From an uncultured delta proteobacterium (GTDB taxonomy: Bacteria > Desulfobacterota > Desulfuromonadia > Desulfuromonadales > JACZKF01), in NCBI GenBank assembly GCA_963848425.1, contig CAWKDO010000005.1:82403-146402 (forward strand): a DNA stretch of 64,000 nt, read 5' to 3'. Positions 19,829 to 22,457 of this stretch are shown here, one piece after another. The translations under genes and the position numbers were made by a program. The notes beneath the pieces are model-generated. The model was not told the origin of the DNA and did not search any database. It saw only the letters and a program-made list of their open reading frames with translations. Numbering within the stretch: the stretch's first letter is position 1; the number at the start of each line of letters is the position of its first letter.

Positions 19829-20122
19829 CTAGCAGCAATCGCTGCCGCCGCAGTCGCAATTCGGCTCCTCACCGGTCAGCCAACCATGGATGATGGCGCT
19901 GGCACAACCAACCCCCGGCTTGACGCTGATCGCTTCGGTCGGGCAGTTGCGGGCACAGGCGCCGCACTCCATGCACCCGTTGCGATCGCCGATGACTGCC
20001 TTCCCCGCCTGGATGATGAAGACGGCGTGCGGACAGACACTTGCGCACAGGCCGCAGCCGATGCATTTACTCGCTGCAAGCGCGAGGGTCGTCACATCTC
20101 CCAAATAGCGAAAATCGCGCAT
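19829..20122 (-). CDS. hgcB: Mercury methylation ferredoxin HgcB
   Basis: CIGCGLCASVCPH and CMECGACARNCP, GVGCA, C-terminal CC; 8 nt after hgcA. Confidence 0.95.
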   Translation of the reverse strand: MRDFRYLGDVTTLALAASKCIGCGLCASVCPHAVFIIQAGKAVIGDRNGCMECGACARNCPTEAISVKPGVGCASAIIHGWLTGEEPNCDCGGSDCC

Positions 20123-20130
20123 CTTAGCCT

Positions 20131-21341
20131 CTAGACAAAAGTCGCGCCCAGCCACAGAACGGCGGCGACAAGCAGGGCCGCACCCTGCAGGGGGATGGCC
20201 CGACGCATCTCCTTCTCCACCCCGGAAGGAGAGGTGAAAGGGGTGGAGCCGGTGAAATTCATGGCACCATAGGAAGCGACAGCGGCAAGGAAGAGGAGGG
20301 TCGCCGCCGCCAGGAGGGGTGGCTGATGGAAGGTGAAGATGCCGACCAGGGCAATGAGTGCGCCGGCAAACGCCCCCTTGGCGGCGAAGGCGCGTCCTGG
20401 CAGCCAGGGGAGGAGAACCGGCGTAGCAACGCAGCCGGCAAGCAGCCCGGCGAGATAGATCAAAACCGTTGCCCCGCCGCGTTCAGCGACCGCCGTCAGA
20501 GAGAAGAAGCCCGGCCCGATGCCAGAGACCAGAAGGAGCGCCGGCACCACCCACAGGCTCATTTTACCCATGCCGGTCATTTCTACCGGCGTCAGCACCA
20601 GCCGCTCGCCAATGCTGAAAGTCACCTGACGCATCGCCGCGGTCGCCTGCATGCCGGCGGCCAGAAAGCGGTGCAGATCGGCTGCCCGCACCGGCCCATA
20701 GACGACCCGAAAGCCGCATTTCCGCCTGACCTCATGCGCCGCCACCCCTGGTGCGCCCAACTGCGGTAGGATCAGGGTGCGGTGTTCCACCACCTGCACC
20801 AGCTTCGTCGCCGCCACCCGGCCGACAAGCTCTGCGGTGCCGAAAGTCCCCTTGCCGGCTGCGCACCAGACGTTGATCCCCTTGGTGTCGAGAACCAGTA
20901 TCCAGGCATTCAGGCCGGCCAACTCCCGGCGCAGGGCATCGAAGCTCAGCTTGTAATTGGCGGTGACCAGCACCGGCGAACCGGCTTCCGGCTTCCCCAC
21001 GGCATATAGCCCCGGCGCCACCCGGTAGCGGCTGCGCCCGAACCCCCAACGCATCAACCAGCGCCCAACGACATCGCGCCAGCGCAGATCGGTTGCGACC
21101 TGCGGCACCGGTCCGGCGGCGGTATTCAGCGTCCCGCAGATAAAATTCCAGCGCCGGTAAACGCGGCTTTCCGCCAGCCCTTGCGGCGGGCAGCATCCGC
21201 TGGTTGCCGCGGCCTGCGACATGGAAGGGGTTGAACACTCTGGCACCGCACCCGGCGGCGCTTTCGGCGGTCAGCAGGGAGGCTGCCCCGTCGGCGGCGG
21301 GCAGCAGGTTTTTCAGCCTTGACTATCTTTGCAATTTTCAT
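20131..21341 (-). CDS. hgcA: Mercury methylation corrinoid protein HgcA; N-terminal extension probably with Cys-Sec (needs +1 base at 21309-21313 and UGA readthrough at 21271-21273; unambiguous part 20131-21246)
   Basis: Cap helix GINVWCAAGKG; PGLYAVG, VTANYKLSFD, LPQLGA, GPVRA; C-terminal TM helices, NFTGSTPFTS.SGV.KEM. Confidence 0.95.
21243..21261 (-). promoter_or_regulatory. Candidate bacterial SECIS hairpin
   Basis: GCGCCGC-CGGGU-GCGGUGC starting 9 nt after in-frame UGA; G-containing loop 16 nt from UGA. Confidence 0.6.
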
Positions 21342-21381
21342 CTTTCCCGGCTTTGCTTCTGGTTATGCAGTCGAAGTGATT

Positions 21382-22457
<1,076 letters not shown>

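Follow-up and report, generated by a model that had tools for sequence, protein, structure and literature searches.

A probable selenocysteine-containing arm of HgcA, separated from its start codon by one base in the assembly of an uncultured delta proteobacterium

The hgcA gene of the window, the 64,000-nucleotide stretch of contig CAWKDO010000005.1 that was analysed here, quite probably encodes the selenoprotein form of HgcA. Translation would begin at ATG 21341, an in-frame UGA would be recoded via a hairpin, and the break at a run of five A between the two would be an indel error. The Cys-Sec arm of HgcA is already published; the lineage of the window differs by its CUPP motif and by a well-defined candidate SECIS. 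The features concerned are collected in Table 1.

Table 1. Features of the hgcAB locus in the window
Feature	Positions	Strand	Evidence
hgcB ferredoxin, 97 aa, Cys-Cys at the end, without Sec	19829..20122	-	NF040864
Rest of hgcA (PPKAPPGAVPEC...GCCPP, corrinoid-binding domain with NVWCAAGK, transmembrane domain), 379 codons plus stop	20131..21270	-	NF040863
Candidate SECIS hairpin GCGCCGC-CGGGU-GCGGUGC	21243..21261	-	Lies in the A-P-P-G-A-V codons, 9 nt after the UGA
TGA, predicted to be read as selenocysteine (Cys-Sec pair)	21271..21273	-	TGY-TGA kept in 15/15 aligned sequences; motif published
Proline-rich arm segment (T)CCPPPTGQPPC with the first Cys-Cys pair, ending at TGC 21276-21274	21274..21308	-	Homologous segment GCCPPPAPGKAPC in G001
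A5 homopolymer, probably one base short in the assembly	21309..21313	-	Extra T behind 21308 (+ strand), in only two bridging contigs
ATG, proposed true hgcA start	21339..21341	-	Homologous start MKIVKVEEK of G001, in frame with the Sec codon

The hgcA locus and its upstream reading frame

The called hgcA ORF (20131..21246, minus strand) opens with a GTG. It scores 458.8-459.1 bits against NF040863 (cut-off 275), and the match, which spans residues 47-370 of the called ORF, covers model positions 1-324 of 325 and leaves the arm outside the model. The hgcB ORF lies directly 3' of hgcA and reaches 130.6 bits against NF040864 (cut-off 99). The window and all 15 aligned relatives carry the cap-helix motif as GINVWCAAGKG; Parks et al. 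reportedly described it in 2013 as N(V/I)WCA(A/G)GK, in which the Cys is the Co ligand.

Upstream of the called GTG (21246), the HgcA frame of the minus strand is open as KTCCPPPTGQPPC-TGA(21273-21271)-PPKAPPGAVPEC. The residues 5' of the TGA are K-T-C-C-P-P-P-T-G-Q-P-P-C, and those 3' of it are P-P-K-A-P-P-G-A-V-P-E-C-S-T-P-S-M-S-Q-A-A-A-T-S-G-C-C-P-P. The TGC at 21276-21274 directly abuts the TGA, so that, as in selenoprotein HgcA, a single in-frame UGA stands immediately after a Cys codon (TGC-TGA 21276-21271), 5' of the old start and in a frame that is open to the core.

ATG 21341, which sits 40 nt 3' of the aroG stop (TAA 21384-21382), opens a frame that reads MKIAKIVKAEK and is offset by one base from the HgcA frame. 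The two frames join at the A5 run (21313-21309), with the ATG frame covering 21341-21309 and the HgcA frame continuing from ACC 21309-21307. As assembled, the HgcA frame also holds a second TGA (21315-21313), which overlaps the A run and did not figure in the original prediction. No ATG, GTG or TTG was found in the HgcA frame between the TGAs at 21315-21313 and 21273-21271, and the arm is therefore startless as assembled. Selenoprotein HgcA has an in-frame upstream start, and the window as assembled has none, ATG 21341 being out of frame; an assembly error is the most likely reason. What the original prediction had read from the sequence (the HgcA frame, the TGA after TGC, the hairpin with its CGGGU loop, the A5 run and ATG 21341) was accurate throughout, and its statement that Cys-Sec extensions are known in HgcA agrees with the accessible text of Haft and Gwadz.

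Arms of HgcA in related genomes

HgcA was sought in 60 related genomes and in the window's own, and was found in 41 of these 61. The best 30 of the 41 loci, the window's included, were fetched and read 5' of the core, with TGA as the only stop codon read through. Besides the window's own locus (1/30), 13 of the 30 carry C-U-P-P-[KQSV]-A-P-P-G in frame with the core and an in-frame start 10-30 codons upstream; ATG serves as the start in 11, GTG or TTG in 2. One locus (G002) has the same CUPP motif out of frame with the core, two have other Cys-Sec motifs (CUGP in G003, CUAP in G019), and another 13 have arms without TGA that contain repeated CCPP units. The residue before the motif varies: 14 relatives carry [PGSRT]CUPP, and the window reads PCUPP. 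Relatives keep the Cys-TGA in frame with HgcA behind an upstream start, one of three testable parts of the original prediction, all of which were borne out. The TGA always follows a Cys and lies at the place of the CCPP units of Sec-free relatives.

G001, which belongs to the same family and has a core 65% identical to that of the window, reads MKIVKVEEKGCCPPPAPGKAPCUPPKAPPGAAPE in a single frame. Its HgcA starts as MKIVKVEEKGCCPPP, and this beginning (MKIVKVEEKGCC) is near-identical to the start proposed for the window. The counterpart in the window is MKIAKIVKAEK followed, one base out of register, by TCCPPPTGQPPCUPPKAPPGAVPE.

Two HgcA lineages occur within the window's family, a CUGP type (G003/G005) at about 51% and a CUPP type (G001/G002/G004) at 64-73% identity to the window core. 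In the 98%-complete genome of G002, the arm (L040 2460-2600 (-)) reads GTG...CUPPKAPPGAAPENATDSCCAPS out of frame with the core (GFPYRDW...), which is either another one-base error or a true loss of the arm.

The Sec-free HgcA proteins with CCPP repeats (13/30 loci) share their core and a proline-rich arm with the window, and their C-C-P-P matches C-U-P-P with Cys replacing Sec. They differ in having no UGA and more Cys-Cys pairs per arm: the median is 4 (range 1-6) in the 13 Sec-free arms and 1 (range 0-2) in the 15 Sec arms, with the window and the frame-broken G002 assigned to the Sec group by hand and one CC of L043 lying in a doubtful TTG-started extension. In the Sec-free arms (relatives' loci L026-L051) these pairs occur mostly as CCPP units. 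The counts, together with the published 'packing' of Cys, support the view that CUPP is the selenium version of the CCPP unit. A more far-reaching proposal, that C-U-P-P-x-A-P-P-G is an order-restricted Sec module in which the SECIS dictates A-P-P-G-A and one Cys-Sec functionally replaces about three Cys-Cys pairs, is tentative, plausible rather than likely.

The hairpin 3' of the UGA

The TGA is followed by a 9 nt spacer, the stem strand GCGCCGC (21261-21255), the loop CGGGT (21254-21250) and the stem strand GCGGTGC (21249-21243). The resulting hairpin has 7 pairs, including one G-U, and its loop starts 16 nt past the TGA. The called GTG start (21246-21244) falls within the 3' arm of the hairpin. 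The codon at this place is GCG (Ala) in 10/15 and GTG in 5/15 aligned sequences, and is thus not a conserved start. The SECIS of E. coli fdhF is a stem-loop a few nt downstream of the UGA, within the coding sequence, with a G in the apical loop. The window hairpin resembles it as a coding-sequence stem-loop just 3' of the UGA with an apical-loop G; there is no Rfam covariance model for the candidate, and an Rfam scan of 21100-21400 at E <= 10 gave four chance-level matches and no SECIS family.

The alignment of 15 sequences gives 105 cells for the 7 pairs, and each of them holds a standard pair. Variation is confined to three pairs, in every case from G-C to G-U (7 cells), and no two-sided compensatory change was found in this alignment. 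This pattern is compatible with selection for pairing, short of a proof by covariation; shuffle controls for covariation were uninformative because the stem is nearly invariant. The folding energy of the UGA-hairpin region was no better than that of shuffled sequences (z = -0.43; 57/200 shuffles equal or better).

The codons of the stem carry more weight. GCG (Ala) and CCG (Pro) are each used at two stem positions in 15/15 sequences, compared with gene-wide frequencies of 29% for GCG and 58% for CCG. The first Ala of NVWCAAGK, which is invariant as a residue, is written with four different codons in the same genes, and the codons bordering the stem and the last loop base vary among the aligned sequences. 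Judged from the aligned genes, this freezing of synonymous sites appears to be a better argument for a SECIS than the pairing counts, and the hairpin is a probable SECIS. The peptide A-P-P-G-A would then be so conserved because the RNA constraint of the hairpin is encoded in its codons.

A DNA signature of the cassette

A 33-nt degenerate pattern, consisting of TGY-TGA, an N9 spacer and the hairpin, was searched for in genomes. It occurs exactly once per genome in 21 of the 233 genomes of the order, the window's included (7 families, 13/71 genera), and a reversed control pattern occurs in none of the 233. Fifteen of the 21 cassettes are the aligned loci, all of which lie in front of hgcA. In a phylum-wide sample of 401 genomes, searched with one mismatch allowed, the window and G004 were the only matches, and at the same tolerance none of the 395 sampled genomes outside the order had the cassette. 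By conservation the TGY-TGA with its hairpin stands above chance; by folding energy alone it does not.

Selenocysteine machinery

The original prediction called for the genome to hold the machinery for selenocysteine, and selA, selB, selD and tRNA-Sec are all found. The selA and selB genes lie side by side at C5:399515-402020, adjoining selD; their split over several frames is the sole reason why they score below their cut-offs. Their matches span at least three frames with internal TGA/TAG, a further sign of indel errors in the assembly. The selD gene (C5:402913-403837) reaches 223 bits, above its cut-off, and is split over two frames in the assembly. SelD has an in-frame TGA of its own, in SSGUAAKL (L054 1501-1830 (+); G000:C5:402913-403242), and is the Sec form of selenophosphate synthetase. 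There is one tRNA-Sec, with 72.3 bits (gathering score 47) and the anticodon TCA (ARAGORN).

Assembly quality and the frame break

The assembly comprises 3.54 Mb in 12 contigs and has a marker completeness of 54%; few contigs combined with low completeness are the signature of an indel-rich long-read assembly. Source reads were sought in public sequencing runs and none were found, the best share of words being 0.11. Four public runs were compared with the window at 85% likeness. Two contigs from two studies (X1 record 1 and X3 record 17) span the region at about 92% identity, with 93 differences and 7 gaps over 1197 bases for X1 record 1; X2 and X4 have no cover at 21308. Both bridging contigs have an extra T behind 21308 (+ strand), which makes the minus-strand run six A long. 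The additional base that the original prediction placed in the A run is present in 2/2 bridging public contigs, these being relatives at about 92% identity and not source reads.

The same two contigs are each one base shorter than the window at 21640, 21681, 21793 and 21829. Two of these sites, 21829 and 21640, were checked by hand and are points at which the window's aroG changes frame; the breaks were placed from the ORF list and the related contigs. The aroG gene (DAHP synthase, 21382-22457 (-)) falls into six or more overlapping ORFs that differ in frame, with in-frame pieces that are highly conserved, and this looks like assembly error and not like a pseudogene. Placing the breaks by tblastn of a relative's intact AroG was given up, as the HSPs were long and of low identity and read through the frame changes. 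'Homopolymer error' was likewise dropped as a general label for the assembly, since the indels in aroG fall outside homopolymers.

The 2.4 kb downstream of 21246, which hold the hgcA core, hgcB and a 403-aa ORF, are free of frame breaks. The errors are therefore unevenly spread, and an error at the A run is not to be assumed. Compared with related sequence derived from short reads, the window has single-base indels that disrupt conserved genes, and the break in hgcA is of the same kind. It is very likely an assembly artefact rather than a real mutation; the six-A form is seen in relatives, not in this strain.

Alternative explanations

Had the base been lost in the organism itself, HgcA would be made from GTG 21246 or ATG 21222 without a Cys-Sec arm, and the TGA and hairpin would be a recent relic. 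The five A of the assembled sequence and the core, which from 21246 down is intact and keeps the full HgcA score, fit such a deletion, as does the out-of-frame arm of G002, after which arm loss may happen. A 2024 PNAS paper (PMC11588087) further reports active recombinant ND132 HgcAB made in E. coli; its accessible text does not state whether the arm was in the construct, and the activity suggests that catalysis may not strictly depend on the arm. A true deletion is nevertheless unlikely. The neighbouring 1.1 kb of aroG shows at least six frame changes between conserved pieces, the four changes compared with related contigs are single extra bases typical of assembly error, and the arm, TGA and hairpin are otherwise undecayed, the cassette being an exact match to those of relatives.

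The remaining alternatives concern decoding. If the TGA were a true stop, the sequence upstream would be a tiny ORF or leader and the hairpin a regulatory RNA (an attenuator or protein-binding site) instead of a SECIS. The lack of compensatory covariation, the absence of an Rfam SECIS match, the ordinary folding energy and the position of the arm outside gene calls and NF040863 would all agree with this. So would a search with residues 1-60 of G001 against 5.8 billion predicted proteins, which returned 50 candidates and none at E <= 0.001; such a search serves U-bearing, low-complexity sequence poorly, and silence is expected if callers end at the TGA. In 13 relatives the frame continues past the TGA and into the HgcA core, which makes a stop very improbable, all the more with a Cys always before the TGA, CCPP units at its place in Sec-free relatives and all Sec genes in the genome; the accessible text of the published work on 20 further HgcA genes agrees (bioRxiv 10.1101/2022.07.06.499078). 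The two frames could also be joined on the A run, either by transcriptional slippage or by a programmed -1 slip of tRNA-Lys, and GAA-AAA-C does permit tRNA-Lys to re-pair one base back. The run has only five A, however, without a canonical heptamer in the zero frame, and G001 and the two bridging contigs read in frame without any shift, which is thus not conserved; programmed frameshifting was dismissed on these grounds and is scarcely credible. An assembled indel in front of a selenoprotein hgcA is the reading retained here.

Relation to published HgcA selenoproteins

According to the accessible text of Haft and Gwadz (bioRxiv 10.1101/2022.07.06.499078; J Bacteriol 2023), the majority of HgcA proteins contain selenocysteine, in a Cys-Sec motif that lies upstream of the old start. 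In the preprint, 20/20 genes have the pentapeptide PCUGP together with Sec machinery, the form is defined by the CU motif, and Sec-free HgcA is described as 'packed' with extra Cys. A table in a 2026 review likewise lists HgcA (NF040863) with the motif CU, and the PNAS paper, as far as its accessible text goes, cites the selenoprotein proposal as a suggestion only. Neither that text nor the accessible part of the preprint demonstrates Se incorporation at the UGA of any HgcA, and the full-text literature on HgcA with selenocysteine or selenoprotein yielded no further relevant paper.

The window shares with the published selenoprotein HgcA (NF040863) the single UGA after Cys 5' of the old start, the short N-terminal extension, the Sec machinery, the extra Cys of Sec-free homologues and the adjacent hgcB. 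The published genes have PCUGP, whereas the window (PCUPP) and 14 relatives have C-U-P-P-x-A-P-P-G. The string CUPP is absent from the text of the preprint, although the alignment in supplement Fig. S7 may already contain this form, and the hairpin of the CUPP lineage is undescribed in the accessible preprint text. A one-base break further separates the window's arm from its start. The HgcA of the Geobacter sulfurreducens GSU1440 type (PPCUGPK..ENVPGFLRWLDTPAG) belongs to the same family and has its Cys-Sec at the same position as the window. A close copy of it occurs in the window's own family (G003, PPCUGPRT...ENVPGFTGWLDTPAG); this lineage is 51% identical to the window core and has another sequence after the UGA and another predicted hairpin.

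Proposed mechanism and implications

In the proposed mechanism, translation would begin at ATG 21341 with an arm that is rich in proline and probably disordered, and would go on into the corrinoid and membrane domains. The arm would carry a Cys-Cys pair, a Cys-Sec pair at UGA 21273-21271 and a further Cys-Cys pair; with the break mended, its roughly 55 proline-rich residues would include CC, CU, a single C and CC. The full protein would have about 403 residues (11 + 12 codons, Sec and 379 codons). The UGA would be recoded by SelB and tRNA-Sec, aided by the hairpin 9 nt downstream as the putative SECIS, to which SelB is predicted to bind. The A5 break (21309-21313) would be an indel error of an error-rich assembly and not biology. 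The arm may capture Hg(II) and pass it to the corrinoid site via vicinal thiol/selenol pairs, in the manner of the Cys-Cys tail of HgcB. Through such an arm, selenium supply might be linked to methylation, as the original prediction had also suggested.

Because gene callers end at the UGA, many genomes carry a wrong annotated N-terminus for HgcA, the protein that makes methylmercury. The window is a clean further example, with a CUPP motif and a hairpin that differ from the published PCUGP set. Apparent frameshifts in this assembly should be treated first as errors. The 33-nt signature is useful for fixing hgcA annotation in metagenomes, and helps to choose strains for testing the effect of selenium supply on Hg methylation. 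If the order-restricted Sec module is true, selenium availability would directly modulate how HgcA captures Hg(II) in these bacteria.
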